Of a stretch of 64,000 bases of DNA, positions 5,918 through 55,352 are shown piece after piece; position 1 is the stretch's first letter, and the number at the start of each line of letters is the position of its first letter. The notes below the pieces were generated by a model. That model did no database searches and had not been told where the DNA came from. It saw only the letters and a list, made by a program, of their open reading frames with translations. Source of the stretch: an uncultured Cytophaga sp. (GTDB lineage Bacteria > Bacteroidota > Bacteroidia > Cytophagales > Cytophagaceae). The stretch spans positions 1,894 to 65,893 of the forward strand of contig NZ_CALMGQ010000136.1 in NCBI RefSeq assembly GCF_937863595.1, written 5' to 3'. A program made the position numbers and the translations under genes.

Positions 5918-7229
5918 TCGGAGTCATGCTTTCTGTCAATTGCGAGAATTGCTTGTAATAAATCAAAAAGACTACGCCGGCAAAAAAACAAAATCCAGCT
6001 AAAATCGCATATGCATAGGTGACGTTTGAGCCTTCCATAAAGAATGGCAGTGTGAAAATAGAAAGGAATAGCAATCTAAATATCGTATTCATTACGTTAA
6101 AGAAACTATTTACTCTTCCTGCTAATTCATTTGGGATCAATGAAAACAAGTACGTCACTCTGAAAATACGAGAACTTGCATTCGTAAACCCTTTTAAGAA
6201 AGCAACATTTATAAATATAATTACAGCGCAGGTCATTGAACTCAACAAGAATATAGCACCCGTTGCGAATGTTAATAATATAATAGATTTTAAAACAGGC
6301 ATTTTGCTAAAGAGGGTTTGAATAATAACCCCAGAAAACAATGCACCCAAGCCATACATCATTTCTGTAAGTCCTAACACGGGCGCTCCTTCTTTCAAAT
6401 GGTTCAGAACATACGGAGTCATTAATGCAAATTGTTCGATGTACACTACTATAAAGATAGTGAACGAACAAATACCAAATAGTGCTACTAATTGATTGTT
6501 TCGTAAATACATATAACCCGTCTTCAGACGTTCGTATAACGAACCTTCATCTGAAATTACAAGTTTCATATTTGGAGAATATTTAATCAATAAAATGATT
6601 AAAAAAGAAATAAAATAGGCAATTGCGTCAAACAAAAATATTTCATGAATTTTCCACTTCTCTAGTGAAAATACAATGTCTGTCATCGGAACATGAATAT
6701 TTTTAACCCCTTCGAGTAGCATCGTGCCCATGATTGCGGAGCCCATAACGGCCGACTGCCCAACAATTTCAATCAAAGAAGTTATTTTAGTATAATCTTT
6801 TGGGTCTGAAAGTTCTTGTGAAAAAGCATATAAATTTGGATAGTGAATTACATATCCAAACATGGTTAATGCATAAACCAATATTATTAATATATTCGTG
6901 AGTTCGCCTTCTTTAAATCCCAAAGAAGCGATAGATAAAATAACAATACCACCAATAAAATTTGTACCTAAAAAGACATCTTTACGATTGAAACCATCAA
7001 TGATTGAGCCTGCATATAATGCCCAAAACAAAGAAGCTAGGGTAATAAGAGTCAAGCATAAACTAAAATACGAATAGTTGTTATGGGTATTGAAATAATA
7101 GGGAATAGACATCATCGTGAAACCTTGAGCAAAGCTCGAGACTCCATTTGCTGTCATTAAAATTGCTAATGTCTTTTTATTTGTCAACGATATTAAATCT
7201 AAAGTTACAACACACAAAATGGCAACCAC
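5901..7229 (-). CDS. MFS transporter
   Basis: 442 aa, about 12 hydrophobic segments, MFS motif-A-like GSIIDGFNRKD. The GTG start at 7229 would overlap the divergent recX start, so the true start is probably internal (e.g. TTG near 7187). The 3' end overlaps the murF-alr start by 17 nt. Confidence 0.8.
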   Translation of the reverse strand: MVAILCVVTLDLISLTNKKTLAILMTANGVSSFAQGFTMMSIPYYFNTHNNYSYFSLCLTLITLASLFWALYAGSIIDGFNRKDVFLGTNFIGGIVILSIASLGFKEGELTNILIILVYALTMFGYVIHYPNLYAFSQELSDPKDYTKITSLIEIVGQSAVMGSAIMGTMLLEGVKNIHVPMTDIVFSLEKWKIHEIFLFDAIAYFISFLIILLIKYSPNMKLVISDEGSLYERLKTGYMYLRNNQLVALFGICSFTIFIVVYIEQFALMTPYVLNHLKEGAPVLGLTEMMYGLGALFSGVIIQTLFSKMPVLKSIILLTFATGAIFLLSSMTCAVIIFINVAFLKGFTNASSRIFRVTYLFSLIPNELAGRVNSFFNVMNTIFRLLFLSIFTLPFFMEGSNVTYAYAILAGFCFFAGVVFLIYYKQFSQLTESMTPNEDKH

Positions 7230-7698
7230 AAAAACTGAAAAAGCTTACACCTCTGCTCAAGTATTTGTAAAAATTGCTTCCTTTTGCGCATACCAAGAAC
7301 GCACTCACCAAGAAGTTCGTCTAAAGTTATACGAATATGGCATAAAAACCGATGAAGTTGAAGCATTTATTGTAAAATTAATTGAGGATAATTTTATAAA
7401 TGAAGAACGTTTTGCAAAGGCATATGCAGGCGGAAAATTCAGAATTAAGAAATGGGGGCGTATAAAAATTATAAAAAGCCTGGAAATGAAAGGGTTAAGC
7501 CCATATTGTATTAAATCCGGTTTAAAAGAAATTGAAGAAAAGGATTATGTGGCGACAATCTCCAGCATTATTGACAAAAAAAATTCTGAAATACATCTAA
7601 AAAATCCCTACCAAAAAACATACAAAATTGCAGCTTACTTAATTTCTAGAGGTTTTGAAGCCGATTTGGTTTGGGATATGTTGAGATCTAGTGACTAG
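7219..7698 (+). CDS. recX: Regulatory protein RecX
   Basis: 159 aa with size and helical-repeat pattern typical of RecX (CAYQERTHQEVRLKLYEYG...). Confidence 0.8.
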   Translation: MATTKTEKAYTSAQVFVKIASFCAYQERTHQEVRLKLYEYGIKTDEVEAFIVKLIEDNFINEERFAKAYAGGKFRIKKWGRIKIIKSLEMKGLSPYCIKSGLKEIEEKDYVATISSIIDKKNSEIHLKNPYQKTYKIAAYLISRGFEADLVWDMLRSSD

Positions 7699-7722
7699 TT
7701 TCCAGGTGCTAGTTTCTAGAAG
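7688..7722. repeat. Heptad array, CTAG family, left arm: CTAGTGA CTAGTTT CCAGGTG CTAGTTT CTAGAAG
   Basis: C of C[TC]AG falls at 7688, 7695, 7702, 7709 and 7716, an exact 7-nt phase. The array includes the recX stop codon TAG (7696-7698). Confidence 0.85.
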
Positions 7723-7744
7723 TTGAAAATATGCGCTTGGTCTT

Positions 7745-7790
7745 AAAAAATAGCCTCATAAATCCTGAACGGATATGAGGCTATTTTTTT
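7745..7790. terminator. Bidirectional intrinsic terminator between convergent recX and lysC
   Basis: TAGCCTCATA (7751-7760) pairs with TATGAGGCTA (7774-7783). An A-run lies 5' and a T-run lies 3'. Confidence 0.8.
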
Positions 7791-7800
7791 ATTTTATTGT

Positions 7801-7835
7801 CGAGAAACTAGTAACTAGTCCCTGGAAACTATTTC
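7801..7835. repeat. Heptad array, CTAG family, right arm (inverted): CGAGAAA CTAGTAA CTAGTCC CTGGAAA CTATTTC
   Basis: Unit starts at 7801, 7808, 7815, 7822 and 7829. The reverse complement of 7821-7831 is TAGTTTCCAGG, identical to 7696-7706. The array contains the lysC stop codon (complement of 7829-7831). Confidence 0.85.
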
Positions 7836-9166
7836 ACTGCTTCTTCATGAAAAAACAATTTCTCGTTTAATACATTTAAAGTTTCATTTTTAGAATTTCC
7901 ATCTATCAATATGGATATGTTAAATAGACTACCGCCATACGAAATCATACGTACTGGTGTATGTTCTAAAGCATCAAACAATCGTTTGCTTGTGCCAACT
8001 TTACCTCTGCCAAAATTACCAACTACACAAATAATCGTTTGGTCTAAATCAACTACAACATTTGAAAATTCTTTCAATTCTGCTATAATCAAATCTAAAT
8101 TTTTAGCATCATCAATTGTCAAAGAAACTGCAACTTCAGAAGTTGTAATCATATCTACTGAAGTCTTAAACTTCTCAAAAATCTCAAATACTTTTCTCAA
8201 AAAGCCGTGTGCTTGCAACATTCTGCTCGATTTGATTTTGATCGCTGTAATGCCATCTTTAGCGGCAATTGCTGTAATATCTCTATCTGCAGGTCTATTG
8301 TTTATTACAGTACCTTTTTGCTCTGGATGCATCGTATTTAATAAACGTACAGGAACCTTACGTACTTGTGCTGGACGTATACATGTTGGATGTAAAATTT
8401 TGGCTCCAAAGTATGCTAACTCGGCTGCTTCATCAAACGATATTTCCGGTATTGGGAATGTACGCTTTACGATACGAGGATCGTTGTTGTGCATCCCATC
8501 AATATCTGTCCATATTTGAATTTCGTCCATTTGTAATGCTGCACCTACTAGAGTCGCGGTATAATCAGAACCTCCACGTTTCAAATTGTCAACTTCATTA
8601 TCCGAATTTAAACATACATACCCTTGTGTGATATACAGACTTTTATTTGGATGTTTTGCCAACTGCTCATTTAACTTTGTTTCAATATAATCCAACATCG
8701 GTTCATTGTCCGCATCCGTTTTCATAAACTCCAGTGCGGGCAATAATGCAGATGAATAACCTTGTTCAGACAAATATTCTTGGAACAAGTTTGTGGAAAT
8801 AATTTCTCCTTGAGCTAAAAACAAGCGTGTTTCTTTGTCGCCAAAGTTTGCTGCTCCAACGTATGATTTAATTAGATCATGGTATGTTTTAACAATAGCA
8901 TGGCCTTTTGATTTCCCTTCAGCTGTGCTGTATAGTTCTTCAACAAAAGCTTTATAAGGACCAAATAAGTTTGCTATAGCTTCTTCAGCAGCTTTCGTAT
9001 CTTTTTTAGTTAATTTATTAGATATGTCTACGAGTGCATTCGTAGTGCCTGAAACGGCTGATAATACAACTACTTTTATATCTGGAGTAGATGATATTAA
9101 TTTTGCAACAGAGTGCATACGATCTGGCTTACCTACAGATGTGCCACCGAATTTTAAAACTTTCAT
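7829..9166 (-). CDS. lysC: Aspartate kinase
   Basis: 445 aa with the MKVLKFGGTSVG aspartokinase N-terminus and a C-terminal ACT-like regulatory part. Confidence 0.9.
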   Translation of the reverse strand: MKVLKFGGTSVGKPDRMHSVAKLISSTPDIKVVVLSAVSGTTNALVDISNKLTKKDTKAAEEAIANLFGPYKAFVEELYSTAEGKSKGHAIVKTYHDLIKSYVGAANFGDKETRLFLAQGEIISTNLFQEYLSEQGYSSALLPALEFMKTDADNEPMLDYIETKLNEQLAKHPNKSLYITQGYVCLNSDNEVDNLKRGGSDYTATLVGAALQMDEIQIWTDIDGMHNNDPRIVKRTFPIPEISFDEAAELAYFGAKILHPTCIRPAQVRKVPVRLLNTMHPEQKGTVINNRPADRDITAIAAKDGITAIKIKSSRMLQAHGFLRKVFEIFEKFKTSVDMITTSEVAVSLTIDDAKNLDLIIAELKEFSNVVVDLDQTIICVVGNFGRGKVGTSKRLFDALEHTPVRMISYGGSLFNISILIDGNSKNETLNVLNEKLFFHEEAVK

Positions 9167-27147: not shown

Positions 27148-28476
27148 ATGAGATATTGTTCCCTTTGTTTTTTTATCATTTTGGTTTTGCATTTTTTTGG
27201 TTGCAAGCCCAAAGATGAAGAGCTGAGCAACAATGTTAGCAATAGGCTGAGTTTTTCAGAAGATACTATTTTTTTTGATACCCTTTTTGCAAGTGTCGGC
27301 AGTATTACCAAAAGATTAATCGTTTACAATCCAAACAAAAATAAAATTCGTGTTTCAAGTATTATACTAGCGGGAGGCTCCAATTCTCCGTATAGCATTA
27401 TTGTAAACGGGCGCAGCGGTCCGCTAGTATCTGATCTAGAAATACTTGGTAAGGACAGCGTATATGTTTTGGTTAAAGTTTTAATAAATCCAAGCAATCA
27501 AAACATGCCCTTTCTGGTTAGTGATTCAATCTTATTCAATACCAATACGAACAATCAAAAAATACTACTTGAAACGTATGGTCAAGATGCGCATTTTTAT
27601 AAAAAAACCACCTTGCCTTGCAATACAACTTGGACAAACGATAAGCCCTATGTACTCTATGATACTATACAAATTGGTATTGGCTGTGAATTGAAAATAG
27701 AAGCCGGTTGCAAAATATACATGCACAATGCCGCTGCCATAAATGTTAAGGGGCGCTTAACGGTGGACGGAACCAAAACAGATTCTGTCTTGATTGCTTC
27801 AGATAAATTAGATGCTTCTGCAAAAGCAGATCTTGGTCAATGGGGCGGAATTATTTTCCAGACAACCAGCACAGACAACCGCATTTCTTGGACAACCATA
27901 CGGAATGCAACAACCGCATTGAAATTATTTTCAGTTGTGGATGCCGATACAATTGCAGAACTAAGTTTAGACCATGTATCGATACTTTATACAAGCAAAG
28001 GTTTGATAGATGCGGCGACTGTTGATCTAAATGGTTCAAACATTCTCTTAAGCAATAGTCCGTATGCTGCGCTTAAACACCTAGGTGGTTGTGGTGTTTG
28101 GAAGCACTGTACATTCGTAAATTATTCAACACGCTTTGTTAGAGAGGAGCCTTGTTTGGTGCTAGGCGATAATGCTTCTTCTTTAAAGATGTATGTATTT
28201 AACAGTATTTTGTGGGGTGATAAAACCGATGAAATTTTGGCAACAAATACGCCTGCACTTTTTGTGCAATCTAGTATTTGGAAGTCAGCCTTTCTTGGAA
28301 CGCATTCAACTATTTTGAATGCAGACCCTCTGTTTAAAAATAGCACACTATTTAATTTTCAATTAAAGGATACCTCCCCTGCCATCGACCTTTGTTTGCC
28401 AGTGGGTATTTCAGACGATTTAATTGGCACCCCAAGAGATGCTAACCCAGATGCTGGTGCGTATGAATTTCAATAG
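27148..28476 (+). CDS. Hypothetical lipoprotein
   Basis: 442 aa with a lipobox (LHFFGC). Beta-rich, and I recognised no family. Its TAG stop runs directly into a CTAG-family heptad array. Confidence 0.6.
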   Translation: MRYCSLCFFIILVLHFFGCKPKDEELSNNVSNRLSFSEDTIFFDTLFASVGSITKRLIVYNPNKNKIRVSSIILAGGSNSPYSIIVNGRSGPLVSDLEILGKDSVYVLVKVLINPSNQNMPFLVSDSILFNTNTNNQKILLETYGQDAHFYKKTTLPCNTTWTNDKPYVLYDTIQIGIGCELKIEAGCKIYMHNAAAINVKGRLTVDGTKTDSVLIASDKLDASAKADLGQWGGIIFQTTSTDNRISWTTIRNATTALKLFSVVDADTIAELSLDHVSILYTSKGLIDAATVDLNGSNILLSNSPYAALKHLGGCGVWKHCTFVNYSTRFVREEPCLVLGDNASSLKMYVFNSILWGDKTDEILATNTPALFVQSSIWKSAFLGTHSTILNADPLFKNSTLFNFQLKDTSPAIDLCLPVGISDDLIGTPRDANPDAGAYEFQ

Positions 28477-28480
28477 TTAG

Positions 28481-28515
28481 ATAGTTTCTAGATGATAGTT
28501 ACCAGGTGTTAGACA
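28481..28515. repeat. Heptad array, CTAG family: ATAGTTT CTAGATG ATAGTTA CCAGGTG TTAGACA
   Basis: AG dinucleotides fall at 28483, 28490, 28497, 28504 and 28511, an exact 7-nt phase. It is preceded by TAGTTAG, which contains the stop codon (28474-28476). Confidence 0.8.
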
Positions 28516-28757
28516 ACAAAATTACAGTGGTTGTTATAATGCAATAAAATTTACCTCACAGGCTATCTTGATTTTTTTCAACCACCCATTAAATTAAATC
28601 CTTCTACAATTTTTATTGACTTCGTACGTCTATCTTATCAGTAAATACCTTTCTGAATGTTATGTTTTTACAGGTATATGCTGTAAATTTAAATAGTAGT
28701 AAATTTCTGAATTAACTTACTTAAAAATTTAACCCTAAATCTAAAATCTATACCCCG

Positions 28758-35189: not shown

Positions 35190-38054
35190 CTACTTCAACT
35201 TCTCATTTAAATACCGCGCTGTATGTCCCTTCGTACATTTGAGCATTTGTTCTGGCGTGCCTTCAAAGATCACTTCTCCGCCGCCGTTGCCTCCTTCTGG
35301 ACCTATGTCAATAATCCAATCGGCGCATTTAATCATTTCCATATTGTGCTCAATTACAATCACAGAATTTCCTTTATTAATCAAGGCCTGAATGGAATCC
35401 AATAATTTACGGATGTCATGAAAGTGCAAGCCTGTTGTTGGTTCATCAAACAAAAACAAAATATGGTCGTTTTTGTCTTCGGGTGATTTCCCTAAAAACG
35501 AAGCAAGTTTCACACGTTGTGCTTCTCCACCCGATAAGGAACTCGAAGATTGCCCCAGTTTCACATATCCCAAACCTACGTCAGATAAGGGTTGTAGCTT
35601 TTCAATTAATTTATTTTTGTCTTTAAAGAAGTCTAAACTTTCTTCAATCGTCATATCCAATACATCCGAAATACTTTTTTCGTTGTATTTGACTTCTAGT
35701 ATTTCTTGTTTGAAACGTTTGCCATTACAGGCTTCGCAGATTAAATGTACGTCTGCCATGAATTGCATTTCAACCGTTACAATACCTTCACCTTGACACA
35801 ATTCACATCTGCCACCATCTACATTGAATGAAAAATGGCCAGGCTTATATCCGCGGGATTTTGCTAAGCCTTGTTCTGCATATAAGGTTCGAATGATGTC
35901 GTAAGCTTTCACATACGTCACCGGATTGGAACGTGACGATTTGCCAATTGGATTTTGATCTACAAATTCAATTTGCGTTACCTCACGTATGTCTCCATCG
36001 ATGCGGTCAAACTTACCCGTGAACTCCCCGGAAAAACCAAATATCTTTTGAAGCGAAGGGAATAATATTTTCTTAACTAACGTAGACTTCCCTGAACCAC
36101 TTACGCCTGTAACAACAGTGAAGGTGTGTAGCGGGAATTTTACATCGATGTTTTTAAGATTGTTTTCGCGGGCGCCTTTTATCTCTATAAACGTATTCCA
36201 CTTTCTGCGGTGCTTAGGTACTTCAATTGATGTGCGGCCTGTTAAATAATCGGTTGTGTACGATCCGCTGTGCGTTAACATATCATCAATTACACCTTGA
36301 AACATCAGCTCACCACCATGAATACCTGCATCTGGACCAATATCAATAATTTGATCCGCAGCACGCATCACTTCTTCTTCGTGCTCCACAACAATAACCG
36401 TGTTGCCCATGTCGCGCAACATCTTAAGCACTTCTACTAGCTTTCCTGTATCGCGCGGATGCAAACCAATACTTGGCTCATCCAATACATACATAGAACC
36501 TACCAGAGCACTACCTAAAGAAGTTGCTAACTTAATACGTTGAAACTCTCCACCCGAAAGCGATGCTGTTAAACGATTCAAGGTTAAATACCCCAAGCCT
36601 ACTTTTTCTAAATAGGATAGTCTATTGATAATTTCTTTTAATAAACGCTCTGCAATCTTTGCTTCGTTCTTATGAAGTTTTACTGTGTTGAAAAACTTCA
36701 CGGCATGATCAACAGACATCAATACAATATCTGTGATTGATTTCTCTGCCACTTTAACATAAGATGCATCTTTACGTAAACGCGTGCCTCTGCAGTCCGG
36801 ACAAACGGTTCTGCCTCTAAAGCGGGAAAGCATTACGCGATATTGTATTTTATATGTTTGCGTTTCTAAATACGCAAAAAATGCCGTTAAGCCTTCAAAG
36901 TACTTATTGCCATCCCAAAGCAATTGCTTCTCTTCTGGACTTAAATCTTGTACAGCTCTATGAATGGGAAAGTCGAATTTAATTCCGTTTTTAATAAGTG
37001 GTTTCTGCCACTCATTCATTTTTTCTCCACGCCAAGCAGCAATCGCGCCTTCGTAAACAGACAAGGATTTATCTGGAATAACCAAATCTTCGTCGATGCC
37101 CATTACATGTCCAAAACCTTCGCAGGTTCTGCAGGCGCCATATGGATTGTTAAAACTGAAAAAATTTGCCGTTGGTTCTTCGAAAATAATTCCGTCTGCT
37201 TCAAAACGATCGCAGAAGTCTTCTGTTACTTTATCGGGTATAACAATTCTGCAATCTCCTTCGCCTTCTGCAAAGGCTGTTTGTACAGAGTCTGCCACAC
37301 GGAACACCGCATCTTCTTCAACTTTGTTGACGGTATTTCGGTCAATTAAAATCCACGCTTCTGCTTTTGCAGGAATGGCTTTTGTTCCTTTTTCAAGCAG
37401 TTCTTCCATCAACACAACTTCCCCATTCAAATACAAACGGGTAAATCCTTTCTGCAACAGTACTTGTAACTCTTCGTGGGGTTTGCGATCGTGTTTTAAT
37501 TTAAACGGAGCAAGTACCATGAACCGTGTTCCTTCCTCGTATTTAAAAATCCAATCAATAACATCTGTAACGGTATTCTTTTTTACTTCTACTCCACTAA
37601 GAGGCGAAATGGTATGCCCAACCCGCGCAAATAATAATTTTAGGTAATCATAAATCTCTGTTGTTGTACCAACCGTGGAACGTGGGTTGCGTGAATTTGC
37701 TTTTTGTTCAATGGCAATTGCGGGAGACACGCCTTTGATGTAATCTACTTCTGGCTTCTCCATACGACCCAAAAACTGACGCGCGTAAGAGCTTAAACTC
37801 TCTACGTACATACGTTGCCCTTCGGCAAACAAGGTGTCAAAAGCCAAAGAAGATTTTCCAGAACCCGACAAACCTGTAATGACGATTAATTTATTTCTTG
37901 GAATGGCAACATCTATGTTCTTGAGATTATGAACCCGCGCACCTTTAATGATGATAAAATTTCGTGGACTCAACGATTCTAAATCCACACTATATGTTTT
38001 TTTTTTCACAGCTACTTCTTTCATACATTCAATCTTGGTCATTCGGCAATACAC
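35190..38054 (-). CDS. uvrA: Excinuclease ABC subunit UvrA
   Basis: 954 aa with two ABC ATPase modules ([25 protein letters not shown]), zinc-finger cysteines and [12 protein letters not shown]. The true start is probably an internal Met (38042 or 38024). Confidence 0.95.
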
Positions 38055-38118
38055 CTCTTTTATAAGGAATACATACTGTTTAAAGTTCCACTTTTTTATT
38101 CAATAATCACAATTAAAA

Positions 38119-38153
38119 AGTACTTAGTACGCAGTATAAAGTATGGAGTACTA
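38119..38153. repeat. Heptad array, GTAC family (reverse orientation): AGTACTT AGTACGC AGTATAA AGTATGG AGTACTA
   Basis: AGTA falls at 38119, 38126, 38133, 38140 and 38147, an exact 7-nt phase. Confidence 0.85.
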
Positions 38154-38409
38154 AAACAAAAATTTATCTTCTCTGGCGCCAGTCTTATCTATCCTAAACG
38201 CAGCTAATTGTTAAACACTGCTATTTCAACAATACAGTAAGTATGAACAGAAAGCGGACTTGTGTCAATCATTTCGCAGTCTTTGACTACATGGCTAAAT
38301 ACATTTTTTAAACAGAGCTAATGAATTAAGGCTTGTAATTTTTTTGAATAATATCGATACTATTTATCCCTCAATCATGTACCCAAGTTAATGACAATGA
38401 GCCATCTTT

Positions 38410-38437
38410 GTACTCCGTACTCTATACTCTGTACTTT
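38410..38437. repeat. Heptad array, GTAC family (forward): GTACTCC GTACTCT ATACTCT GTACTTT
   Basis: Units start at 38410, 38417, 38424 and 38431. The array is preceded by CCATCTTT and ends just before the stop codon (38441-38443) of the DUF606 gene. Confidence 0.85.
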
Positions 38438-38440
38438 CTC

Positions 38441-38881
38441 CTACTTCTTATAAAACAGCCACAAGGAAAAAAACATCAAGCCCATGGCAGAAATTTTCTT
38501 CCAACCAATTTTAATAGGTATCCCTGTAAATATGCCGAAATGATCGATTACGGCACTTGTGGTCAGTTGGGTTATGATTAACAACATCAATACATTACCA
38601 ATGCCGATTTTAGGAACCATTATAATGATTGCCAAAACATAAAAGGCCCCTAAAATACCACCCGAAAGTTGCCATAACGGAACATCTTTCACCAACGTAA
38701 TATTCCCTTTTCCAAAAAAGAGCATTGCAATTCCAATCGTTACCAAGCCAACAAAAAAAGACGTGAAAGATGCTTCCATTGTGCCAATCTGCTTTCCTAA
38801 TGCCCCATTTACGCCTGCTTGAAAAGCAACGGCAATGCCTGCTAAGGCAAGTGTTATAAAGTATGTTGTGTTCATTTTCAT
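38441..38881 (-). CDS. DMT-superfamily small transporter (DUF606 / YdcZ-like)
   Basis: 146 aa with 5 TM helices and an N-terminus ...AVAFQAGVNGALGKQIG typical of DUF606. Confidence 0.7.
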   Translation of the reverse strand: MKMNTTYFITLALAGIAVAFQAGVNGALGKQIGTMEASFTSFFVGLVTIGIAMLFFGKGNITLVKDVPLWQLSGGILGAFYVLAIIIMVPKIGIGNVLMLLIITQLTTSAVIDHFGIFTGIPIKIGWKKISAMGLMFFSLWLFYKK

Positions 38882-38895
38882 GTGTTTTTGAAGAA

Positions 38896-38923
38896 AGTAT
38901 AGAGTACAGAGTACGGAGTACTA
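38896..38923. repeat. Heptad array, GTAC family (reverse): AGTATAG AGTACAG AGTACGG AGTACTA
   Basis: AGTA falls at 38896, 38903, 38910 and 38917. Segment 38892-38921 is the inverted complement of 38410-38439 at 28 of 30 positions. Confidence 0.85.
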
Positions 38924-39076
38924 AGACTTAAAAACAATGTTTTTGATGAATTTGTTTATTATGTGTGGTCTATGCTCTTTAATCCAAGTAATTTAAAATA
39001 ACAATTCTATTTGTATGTCATGTTATTATCGTTTTCTCGCCATTGAACCACCCTAGACTGCTAATCATCCATCTTT

Positions 39077-39104
39077 GTACTATGTACTTTGTACTTTGTA
39101 CGTT
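39077..39104. repeat. Heptad array, GTAC family (forward): GTACTAT GTACTTT GTACTTT GTACGTT
   Basis: GTAC falls at 39077, 39084, 39091 and 39098. It is preceded by the same CCATCTTT flank as the 38410 array. Confidence 0.85.
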
Positions 39105-39254
39105 TTTTTCCAGTTACTTTTCCCTACCCCTACGTATATATCCTTGTAAATATCATTATTTACTCCTAATTTAGGATTATTATAGCCTTTACGTATAAAC
39201 CACAAAATACTACCCTATGAGTTAGACCTCTACGTTAACTAAACATGTACGGAT

Positions 39255-40796: not shown

Positions 40797-40824
40797 CTAG
40801 CAACTGGAAACTAGCGCCTAGCAA
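40797..40824. repeat. Heptad array, CTAG family (inverted orientation): CTAGCAA CTGGAAA CTAGCGC CTAGCAA
   Basis: C[T]NG units start at 40797, 40804, 40811 and 40818. The reverse complement contains CTAGTTTCCAG, as at 7695-7705. Confidence 0.8.
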
Positions 40825-40954
40825 CATTTCTTCGTGTTTGGGCAAAAACCAGCGTACACGAATTATTAAAACACAATCCAATAGTTTCACTGAAATGTGC
40901 TACTAGAGTTTCATTTTTTATTGTACCTTATCGCTGTATCTTATCCCTGTTATT

Positions 40955-52291: not shown

Positions 52292-52333
52292 AAAACTAAA
52301 TTCCAAATAACAAAAAACAAATTCCAAACTACT
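52292..52333. repeat. Heptad array, CAAA family (left arm): AAAACTA AATTCCA AATAACA AAAAACA AATTCCA AACTACT
   Basis: C falls at 52304, 52311, 52318, 52325 and 52332, an exact 7-nt phase. The array starts 2 nt after the gldD stop. Confidence 0.75.
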
Positions 52334-52344
52334 GAAATCTACAT

Positions 52345-52380
52345 CCGTTTGTTATTTATTATTTGTTATTTGTTTTTTTG
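52345..52380. repeat. Heptad array, CAAA family (right arm, inverted): CCGTTTG TTATTTA TTATTTG TTATTTG TTTTTTTG
   Basis: Units start at 52345, 52352, 52359 and 52366. The reverse complement reads CAAATAA/CAAAAAA units like the left arm. The array ends 8 nt before the recG start. Confidence 0.75.
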
Positions 52381-54478: not shown

Positions 54479-54485
54479 AGGAAGT

Positions 54486-54520
54486 GGAAGGCTTAATGCG
54501 GAAGGCCTAAGGCTTCATAC
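54486..54520. repeat. Heptad array, GGAAGGC family: GGAAGGC TTAATGC GGAAGGC CTAAGGC TTCATAC
   Basis: AA falls at 54488, 54495, 54502 and 54509, an exact 7-nt phase. The array starts 8 nt after the recG stop. Only a weak complementary arm (GCACCTTTCC near 54615) is visible. Confidence 0.7.
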
Positions 54521-54595
54521 TATACCACTGACCTTTAAATAAATTAATTGTATACTTTTTTAAATTGATAATTTTAAAAACATCATAAAACAAAA

Positions 54596-54626
54596 AAGGT
54601 TCGAACTTTCGCCCGCACCTTTCCTA
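54596..54626 (-). terminator. Candidate intrinsic terminator after lspA
   Basis: On the minus strand, AAAGGT...ACCTTT encloses GCGGGCGAAAGTTCGA and is followed by TTTTGTTTT. Confidence 0.5.
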
Positions 54627-54644
54627 TTCTTTAAATTAATATTT

Positions 54645-55262: not shown

Positions 55263-55297
55263 TTTTAAGTTTTAAGTAATATGTTTTAAGTTTTAAG
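55263..55297. repeat. Heptad array, TTAAG family (left arm): TTTTAAG TTTTAAG TAATATG TTTTAAG TTTTAAG
   Basis: G falls at 55269, 55276, 55283, 55290 and 55297, an exact 7-nt phase. The array begins 1 nt upstream of the lspA start codon. Confidence 0.9.
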
Positions 55298-55323
55298 AAA
55301 AAGAAATATTGAGAATGGGCCCT

Positions 55324-55352
55324 CATATAACTTATTACTTAAAACTTAAAAC
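55324..55352. repeat. Heptad array, TTAAG family (right arm, inverted): CATATAA CTTATTA CTTAAAA CTTAAAA C
   Basis: C falls at 55324, 55331, 55338, 55345 and 55352. Segment 55333-55351 is the perfect reverse complement of 55263-55281 (19 bp). The array ends 2 nt before the ileS stop codon. Confidence 0.9.

Follow-up and report, generated by a model that had tools for sequence, protein, structure and literature searches.

Why should two genes that face each other end in the same sequence? In the stretch of DNA analyzed here (64,000 nt of contig NZ_CALMGQ010000136.1 from an uncultured Cytophaga sp.; hereafter, the window), convergent recX and lysC are separated by a 130-nt spacer, and their 3' untranslated regions (3' UTRs) start identically, as the original prediction for this locus had claimed, with TAGTTTCCAGG at both stops. 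The two copies belong to arrays of 7-nt units ("heptads") that mirror each other across a transcription terminator. We find that the junction exemplifies a widespread but little-studied type of repeat, frequent both in this genome and in Bacteroidota at large. Judging from the sequences, we favor an origin by DNA-level slippage and template switching around a presumably working bidirectional terminator, which would leave mirrored, degenerate heptad arrays outside it, and we put the chance that this account is right at about even.

The anatomy of the junction can be read directly from the sequence (Table 1). The identity of lysC follows from PF00696 (AA_kinase) and ACT_9, annotated on the identical gene of another contig (L081), and from homologues named aspartate kinase. 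A search of both strands of the 64 kb finds exactly two occurrences of TAGTTTCCAGG; at one mismatch or fewer, there are 5 matches in the window where 0.88 would be expected, a count that no shuffle out of 100 attained. Complementarity of 88% is kept over 24 nt (7696-7719 versus 7808-7831, arms 88 nt apart). The proposed inverted pair of CTAG heptads is confirmed. The arms consist of five (left) and four and a half (right) tandem 7-nt units with a conserved C[T/C]AG core, and the junction belongs with the heptanucleotide repeats described as short tandemly repeated repetitive (STRR) sequences or long simple sequence repeats (LSSRs). The units CTAGTTn and CCAGGTG lack G3 tracts and are therefore not of the G-quadruplex type (GGGAATC). 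Six of the 90 CTAG sites in the window fall in this 130-nt stretch.

Past a 2-nt mismatch both arms have CTAGTT, after which the right arm carries an additional heptad, ACTAGTT, the difference of one unit that had been noted earlier; inward of it, TCTAG is aligned to TCTCG. Read on the minus strand, as the start of the lysC 3' UTR, the right array runs TAG, TTTCCAG, GGACTAG, TTACTAG and TTTCTCG. The heptad phase does reach the last codons of recX, since its final three codons and TAG stop (7688-7698) fall within the left array. Both stop codons had been described as the outermost triplets of the arms: they do lie inside the arms, but they are not strictly the outermost paired triplets, as the predicted pairing carries on for about 5 bp inside each coding sequence (AGTGA with TCACT). 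Tandem Repeats Finder (score ≥ 30) gives no call for the recX/lysC arrays because they are degenerate, though it calls other arrays in the window.

The hairpin between the arms has 16-bp arms of its own that are 100% complementary; a T-run continues past it to 7798 on the plus strand, and an A-run, which is a T-run on the minus strand, begins at 7745. Its predicted energy is -22.3 kcal/mol on the plus strand and -23.7 kcal/mol on the minus strand (z about -7). With a stable stem and a U-run on both strands, it has the sequence features of a bidirectional Rho-independent terminator, and the original prediction was right to place one, with its A and T runs, between the arms. Pairs of the stem covary across 7 orthologues through compensatory changes (RNAalifold). 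A simple consensus terminator scan gave no call at 7745-7789, because the 13-nt loop exceeds the 8-nt limit of the scan.

In silico folding also bears out the suggestion that the spacer can form a long stem. The whole spacer is predicted to fold into a single long stem, interrupted in places and tipped by the terminator, at -61.2 kcal/mol on the plus strand (z = -9.3) and -57.7 kcal/mol on the minus strand (z = -8.8). The left array alone can self-fold through its palindromic CTAG cores (-12.8 kcal/mol). A known RNA family was considered and rejected: Rfam 15 has no match above its gathering thresholds anywhere in the window, and E-value thresholds yield only spurious sub-threshold matches to plant microRNA precursors, as any long hairpin would. 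A blastn search of the junction against plasmids returned no match.

Is this architecture a property of recX and lysC? Using Tandem Repeats Finder and our own period scans, we found at least four further inverted pairs of 7-nt arrays in the window, each with a unit specific to its locus. Strict period-7 arrays number 4 in the window, compared to 0-1 at other periods (4-13 compared) and 0.05 in shuffles. The 64 kb hold three CTAG-type and two AGTAC-type loci with units that differ by locus, and the genes flanking inverted pairs are convergent, co-directional or divergent. The arrays at 28474-28520 and 40797-40825 have TAGTTnCCAGG-like units and a TAGACAA inner boundary in common with the recX/lysC arms, and the former contains TAGTTACCAGG, one mismatch away from the recX arm. 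The same architecture thus occurs, with other 7-nt units, at other spacers of the window and in many other Bacteroidota, contrary to the dedicated recX/lysC device that the original prediction implied. A device specific to these two genes is not supported, and the arms most likely arose, and have stayed alike, through DNA copying errors.

A small YdcZ-family exporter gene (38441-38881, minus strand) has AGTAC-type inverted pairs on both sides, in spacers 38043-38440 and 38882-39254; the two pairs have inner boundaries in common (GGAGTACTAARAC on the left, CCATCTTTGTACT on the right) and unrelated interiors of 250 nt and 145 nt to which no feature is assigned. At a second convergent junction (54479-54644), weaker period-7 stretches of GGAAGnn and CTTTCnn can be seen by eye beside both stops. 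A miniature inverted-repeat transposable element (MITE) was rejected, as all-versus-all blastn of the window pairs and orthologous junctions matches the arrays only, never the interiors, and no direct repeats flank the junction arms. We also rejected "six-frame stop" heptads as a general rule. The CTAG and TTTTAAG units close all six frames, but this is not true of AGTAC units, nor of the AAATAAC pair on its GTTATTT strand, and AGTAC units even encode the recX tail in one relative (L094).

The closer relatives, which we reached through lysC homologues in the protein database and contig look-ups, show that the arms are kept while their sequence changes. In the ten contigs examined from metagenome samples of the window's own population (L081-L090), the junction is identical. 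Five lineages with lysC 85-91% identical (the window, L091, L100, L104 and L102, the last with a different gene partnering lysC) carry CTAG/CCAG-type arms on both sides of the terminator; orthology is evident among the CTAG-type arms, which have diverged through substitution of units and through insertion or deletion of entire ones. Two lineages at 87% lysC identity (L094 and L097) have GTAC/AGTAC-type units in both arms and keep the inner flank ACAATAAAA, a combination that points to exchange between the arms. Paired arms are thus retained in relatives with lysC at least 85% identical, and the arms change together instead of drifting independently, two outcomes on which the original prediction had staked itself; it had also asked whether orthologues end in TAGTTTCCAGG, and the 11-mer itself is not conserved among them. 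Farther out, L098 (lysC 84%) has a 76-nt spacer with the hairpin only and no arms, and in L103 (lysC 80%) the gene order is broken.

In every orthologous junction that has arms, the predicted fold pairs them (z from -5.4 to -13.1). The RNAalifold consensus comprises the terminator, with 20 pairs, and an outer helix of 9 bp formed by the arms; 22 of the 30 pairs show one or more compensatory changes. The end of recX is heptad-encoded in all lineages, and the C-terminus of the protein follows the unit type. Among close relatives the length of RecX ranges from 159 to 163 aa, with the last 3 to 6 codons written by the heptad unit of the junction: AGTAC units give ...STEY before the stop, and CTAG units ...SSD or ...TSN.

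With these data in hand, chance symmetry in an AT-rich spacer can be set aside. The shortness of the perfect match is the only point in its favor, and it has next to no probability given that the exact 11-mer stands only at two mirrored positions, that no shuffle reached the observed count, that the fold has a z-score of -9, and that the same architecture recurs in orthologues and at unrelated loci.

We then have a wider sample in which to ask how common such arrays are: lysC loci from 80 GTDB Bacteroidota genomes (539 kb) and 80 metagenome contigs (276 kb), 815 kb and 160 contigs altogether, taken from the lysC matches listed and consisting of relatives at ≤ 65% identity. The GTDB loci contain 17 strict period-7 arrays versus 1-5 for periods 5, 6, 8, 10, 11 and 12, and the metagenome loci 23 versus 0-5 for other periods, a 4- to 10-fold over-representation of period 7. 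Among the 39 distinct strict arrays, 19 have an inverted partner (≥ 16/21 positions, within 400 nt) and only 5 a direct one. In Chitinophaga solisilvae (L020), a gap-interrupted palindrome follows the lysC stop, its heptad arms continue into the terminator, and 73/73 aligned arm positions match. Heptad hairpins start at the lysC stop in two Puia loci (L035 and L041), GAGCAAG arms in Daejeonella (L016) have both convergent stop codons as their outermost triplets, as the original prediction described for recX/lysC, and one further locus (L066) has two unit types in mirrored order. Another contig (L117) carries a near-perfect heptad hairpin between a terminator and the ribH start codon, in which 38/40 aligned positions match; this ORF-less hairpin (open reading frame, ORF), at 305-412, is built from the units ATGTTCA and ATTCTCA, and the adjoining terminator is strong.

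Inverted heptad arrays also lie in frame within coding sequences (CDS), namely in lysA-like diaminopimelate decarboxylase genes of at least six Sphingobacteriia-type genomes, with units that differ among them (Table 1). They always occupy one loop of the protein, between ...YQAYHxIEN and YDVVGPICES, where they form a repeat-encoded and rapidly changing insert.

Table 1. Heptad arrays and associated features at the recX/lysC junction, elsewhere in the window, and in other contigs
Feature	Contig	Position	Strand	Remarks
recX CDS	window	7219-7698	+	ORF; TAG stop at 7696-7698; Pfam RecX_HTH1/2/3 matches
lysC (aspartate kinase) CDS	window	7829-9166	-	ORF; stop reads CTA (+ strand) at 7829-7831
Perfect 11-nt inverted repeat TAGTTTCCAGG, left copy	window	7696-7706	+	starts with recX stop codon
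Perfect 11-nt inverted repeat TAGTTTCCAGG, right copy	window	7821-7831	-	starts with lysC stop TAG (7829-7831)
Left heptad array CTAGTGA, CTAGTTT, CCAGGTG, CTAGTTT, CTAGAAG	window	7688-7722	+	start of recX 3' UTR; five units
Right heptad array (+ strand letters) CGAGAAA, CTAGTAA, CTAGTCC, CTGGAAA, CTA	window	7801-7831	-	four and a half units
Bidirectional intrinsic-terminator-like hairpin AAAAAATAGCCTCATA, 13-nt loop, TATGAGGCTATTTTTT	window	7745-7789	both	arms 7745-7760 / 7774-7789
CTAG-type array TAGTTAG, ATAGTTT, CTAGATG, ATAGTTA, CCAGGTG, TTAGACA	window	28474-28520	+	directly after TAG stop
AGTAC-type (AGTACnn) array	window	38117-38155	+	left arm of pair bracketing co-directional spacer 38043-38440
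Inverted partner of 38117-38155	window	38407-38437	-	ends 5 nt before stop of YdcZ-family gene 38441-38881
AGTAC-type (AGTACnG) array	window	38893-38925	+	begins 12 nt upstream of ATG of gene 38441-38881 (-)
Inverted partner of 38893-38925	window	39071-39102	-	divergent spacer
CTAG-type array CTAGCAA, CTGGAAA, CTAGCGC, CTAGCAA	window	40797-40825	-	close likeness to lysC-side arm
Inverted pair AAATAAC (52304-52322) / TTTGTTA (52348-52378)	window	52304-52378		AT-rich hairpin then T-run, between two + strand genes
Inverted pair TTTTAAG (55263-55297) / CTTAAAA (55329-55352)	window	55263-55352		fills spacer, from ATG of one - strand gene to stop of next gene
recX with recoded C-terminus	L094	3965-4456		
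recX with recoded C-terminus	L097	3963-4448		
In-frame array in lysA-like gene	L030	5383-5450		
In-frame array in lysA-like gene	L036	5418-5450		
In-frame array in lysA-like gene	L056	5430-5505		
In-frame array in lysA-like gene	L132	2745-2838		
In-frame array in lysA-like gene	L151	3621-3706		
In-frame array in lysA-like gene	L168	3560-3652		

Arrays that adjoin stop and start codons, many of them with palindromic cores in their units, could be imagined as binding sites for a protein. The arrays might hold one monomer of a cold-shock protein or of ribosomal protein S1 per heptamer on single-stranded nucleic acid, or a dimeric DNA-binder might recognize the palindromic cores (CTAG, GTAC, TTAA, AATT) and tune translation termination or initiation, or mRNA stability. 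There are precedents in the literature: according to studies cited in PMC4679880, CspB bound heptamer direct repeats with one protein per heptamer, and the same paper suggests that S1, Csp and CsrA bind the TAACTGA repeats found ahead of start codons (PMC4679880). However, the units are locus-specific and have no common motif, which is hard to fit to one sequence-specific binder, and the mirrored arrangement is left unexplained. We regard protein binding of either kind as quite improbable.

The differences between paired arms provide a way to tell selection on an RNA stem from events at the DNA level. Selection on a stem as RNA should leave many G·U mismatches and few A·C mismatches or transversions. 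Over 23 pairs and 799 aligned arm positions, we counted 690 matches, 27 G:T, 25 A:C and 57 other mismatches. This symmetric spectrum, with no G·U excess, argues against long-term selection of an RNA stem and favors a DNA-level origin. In seven co-directional pairs for which we assigned a transcribed strand, counting by hand yielded 4 mismatches compatible with wobble and 5 of the anti-wobble kind, which is consistent with no RNA-level selection but is a weak test, with only 9 informative mismatches. Across the 23 pairs, 5 of the 10 gaps between arms are exactly 7 nt long. The pairs in L020 (0 mismatches in 73 positions) and L117 (2 in 40) look like the result of recent DNA-level copying.

Could the arms nonetheless work as RNA? 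The proposal would be that read-through or co-directional transcripts pair the arms into a duplex of 25-60 bp, and that this duplex is cut by RNase III or blocks exonucleases, insulating convergent genes from antisense read-through or processing and stabilizing mRNA ends. Much of the orthologue evidence is compatible with it: arm pairing is predicted in every orthologue despite the differing sequences, the outer helix is kept in the RNAalifold consensus, and in L094 and L097 the unit type has changed in both arms together. Co-directional spacers, moreover, necessarily place both arms on one RNA. Related structures are known to be processed, as the terminal inverted repeats of intervening sequences (IVSs) are RNase III substrates and the heptamers of the Coxiella IVS lie at the cleavage site (PMC4990558), and a Haemophilus 5' UTR heptanucleotide repeat is reported to act via an RNase III-targeted structure (PMC12721329). 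Against this, G·U pairs are not in excess of A·C, and the majority of mismatches could not pair in either strand; many arms, being AT-rich, would make weak duplexes; at this convergent site a strong terminator lies between the arms, and both would rarely share an RNA; some arrays are single or lie within CDS; and L098, with lysC still 84% identical, does without arms. We consider a functional long-range stem of this kind unlikely. Any role for the arms as an RNA stem would be secondary.

Instead, the arrays may be explained by slippage and template switching in the DNA. Replication slippage would add or drop whole 7-nt units, and one arm would be copied onto the other across the hairpin by intrastrand template switching or by gene conversion (quasi-palindrome correction), while ectopic conversion between arrays of different loci could spread unit types. 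Arrays would grow outward until they meet protein-coding constraint, which may be why they run up to both genes and a little way into their ends, and both stop codons would lie in the arrays because the units carry TAG on both strands and the first in-frame TAG becomes the stop; the position of the stops would then need no special function. At the junction, the inner hairpin would end both transcripts with no need for the arms, which would add at most a small local hairpin to each 3' UTR and a long duplex to any read-through RNA. Since pairs occur in every gene context, even in frame in a lysA-like gene, a DNA-level process fits better than a terminator-specific function; a terminator inside that gene would be harmful. 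The anatomy, the spread of the class through genome and phylum, the retention and joint turnover of arms in orthologues, the 7-nt indels and the missing wobble bias are direct observations. We infer both the slippage and template-switch mechanism and the lack of an essential RNA-level role from this combination of features.

Several observations sit less easily with this DNA-level account. The architecture persists at one orthologous site despite sequence turnover, and the 9-bp outer helix of the RNAalifold consensus has some compensatory changes, as selection on the stem would also predict. The arrays lie at the outer edges of spacers and are not randomly placed within them. Related arrays with the TAGACAA inner boundary at three or more loci hint at mobility or at sequence-specific recognition, as does the identical 21-mer AGTACAGAGTACGGAGTACTA at different loci in different species. 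A purely passive slippage would not predict the association of heptad arrays with PF05635 genes that we describe below. Finally, we saw no direct sign of template switching, and there is no junction polymorphism among the ten contigs of the window's own population.

The 21-mer deserves a closer description. It consists of three heptad variants in the same order and is identical at 38903-38923 of the window and at the 3' end of recX in L094. In the window it falls in the divergent spacer beside the YdcZ-family gene (array 38893-38925), and in L094 it lies on the minus strand, at position 2353 of the reverse complement. Such identity at different loci of different species suggests, at the level of sequence, ectopic conversion or mobility of array sequence.

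Mobility is also raised by a set of genes found between heptad arrays. At one census locus (L013, 4335-4700), heptad arms enclose a 121-aa ORF that matches PF05635, the "23S rRNA intervening sequence protein" family (E = 6.5e-28), and whose homologues in Bacteroidota, Cyanobacteria, Planctomycetota and other groups share 70-80% identity. We assembled 13 PF05635 loci: L013, three contig look-ups (L186-L188), and three viral contigs and six plasmids (L193-L201), the plasmids being from Bernardetia, Chondrinema, Euhalothece, Nostoc (two) and Treponema. Inverted flanks (≥ 16/21 positions) are present at 9 of the 13 loci versus 5.6% of 375 control genes, and a period-7 array lies upstream at 9 of the 13 versus 1.6% of the controls. 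The hosts of the array-embedded genes are Bacteroidota, Cyanobacteria (Limnospira, Euhalothece, Nostoc) and a Treponema plasmid. Units in the flanks include TAACTGA and TGACCAG; the reverse complement of the latter, CTGGTCA, is one base off TTGGTCA, which we take to be the STRR2 unit. We found no paper in the literature linking PF05635 to heptamer arrays in general. PF05635 proteins are four-helix bundles and homologous to Avd of diversity-generating retroelements.

Whether this association extends to the recX/lysC junction is another matter. The junction arms have the same architecture as those around PF05635 genes, except that they enclose a terminator instead of a PF05635 ORF, and a search of the window ORFs with a hidden Markov model built from 120 PF05635 homologues found no such ORF; the link of PF05635 to the junction is therefore by analogy only. 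On a mobile-element reading, the junction would be a copy, itself non-autonomous, of some mobile or selfish palindromic element, with heptad pairs as the termini or landing pads of PF05635 cassettes, comparable to REPINs and their RAYT genes (repetitive extragenic palindrome [REP] doublets and REP-associated tyrosine transposases). The frequencies of inverted flanks and upstream arrays given above support such a reading, and the 70-80% identity of PF05635 proteins across phyla implies horizontal spread. So does the likeness of the ORF-less L117 hairpin, TGAACATTGAGAAT, to the flanks of a Limnospira PF05635 gene (L187) point toward mobility, along with CTAG- and AGTAC-type arrays that have common inner boundaries at several loci and the one identical 21-mer.

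Apart from the missing PF05635 ORF, however, the interiors of the window pairs have no similarity to each other, the recX/lysC arms evolve in place between orthologous flanks across the clade, and we saw neither a target-site duplication nor an empty site. The cassettes could instead insert into pre-existing hairpins, and PF05635 proteins are not known to have nuclease or transposase activity. We consider the mobile-element reading rather unlikely for the junction. Flanks arising as target-site duplications from repeated insertion and excision were ruled out on logic, as these would be direct and not inverted. A broader version, drawn by analogy, would make paired inverted heptad arrays in general cross-phylum selfish or maintained palindromic elements tied to PF05635, in which the gene sits between its own arms as RAYT does between REPs, ORF-less pairs are non-autonomous, and the arm duplex is processed by RNase III. 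We consider this decidedly unlikely; if true, it would account together for cyanobacterial STRRs, the heptad palindromes of Bacteroidota and rRNA intervening sequences.

Tandem repeats of heptanucleotides have been on record since 1990 (Mazel 1990, as cited in PMC4679880 and PMC4692102). What emerges here is that in Bacteroidota they typically form mirrored pairs that bracket whole intergenic spacers and reach stop and start codons, that such pairs persist at orthologous sites while the unit sequence is replaced in both arms together, and that they can lie in frame in a gene. There are practical consequences: in annotation, heptad pairs mimic long hairpins, small RNAs or MITEs and rewrite protein C-termini, and in assembly, the repeats are prone to 7-nt slippage. 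The findings also bear on how palindromes grow in bacterial genomes, and the PF05635 association offers a testable handle on what makes and maintains heptanucleotide repeats.

How, then, do these arrays relate to repeat systems already described? REPs, bacterial interspersed mosaic elements (BIMEs) and REPINs are short extragenic inverted repeats that form hairpins, often after stop codons or between convergent genes, and the RAYT gene is flanked by such repeats. A REP, however, is a single conserved sequence, 20-40 nt long, that occurs hundreds of times and lacks the 7-nt tandem structure, whereas the unit sequence here is locus-specific. No RAYT-like gene was seen here, though no search was aimed at one.

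The Coxiella burnetii 23S rRNA IVS with its S23p (PF05635) ORF has a terminal inverted-repeat stem that is cut by RNase III and, at one end, tandem heptamers that are polymorphic in copy number (PMC4990558). The likeness lies in the long terminal stem around an insert and in the PF05635 genes outside rRNA that we find flanked by inverted heptad arrays. The junction pair differs in that it encloses a terminator and not an ORF and lies between protein genes and not in rRNA, in a window with no PF05635 gene.

In cyanobacterial STRRs or LSSRs, tandem heptamers are over-represented in intergenic DNA, with several unit types per genome and 7-nt copy steps (Mazel 1990; Mrazek 2007, as cited in PMC4679880 and PMC4692102). 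Among LSSRs, heptamers form the most abundant class, and polymerase slippage has been proposed as their cause (Mrazek 2007, as summarised in PMC4679880). The over-represented period 7, several unit types and 7-nt steps are all found here as well, but those repeats are described mainly as direct arrays and not as mirrored brackets of a terminator or as stop-containing, and only a few inverted heptamer pairs were found in Nostoc (Rehm et al., PMC4692102). The TAACTGA repeats of Beggiatoaceae, Cyanobacteria and five Bacteroidetes are nearly all direct, forward and just upstream of start codons (MacGregor 2015, PMC4679880); one inverted case was found among 170 sets, a role in translation was proposed, and "other heptamer direct repeats" were noted in spacers of Gramella, Aequorivita and Elizabethkingia (PMC4679880). 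They resemble our arrays in lying beside gene ends, in having stop codons within units and in occurring in some Bacteroidetes, but that system has a single specific unit repeated directly before start codons, in contrast to the mirrored pair at the junction.

The closest precedent is in Xanthomonas, where 70-75 cases per genome have two nearby arrays of GGGAATC heptamers on opposite strands, capable of forming a stem-loop or cruciform (Rehm et al. 2015, PMC4692102); these repeats are transcribed, and their locations next to particular genes are not conserved from one species to another (PMC4692102). Both systems consist of intergenic 7-nt tandem arrays in inverted pairs. There, however, one G-rich unit is used genome-wide and forms G-quadruplexes, whereas here the units are AT-rich and have no G-tracts, and the arms adjoin or enter gene ends and enclose a terminator. 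Relative to the known heptamer repeats, the arrays described here are new in their locus-specific units, often with palindromic cores, in their mirrored order, in the bracketing of spacers into stop and start codons, and in the terminator that they enclose.

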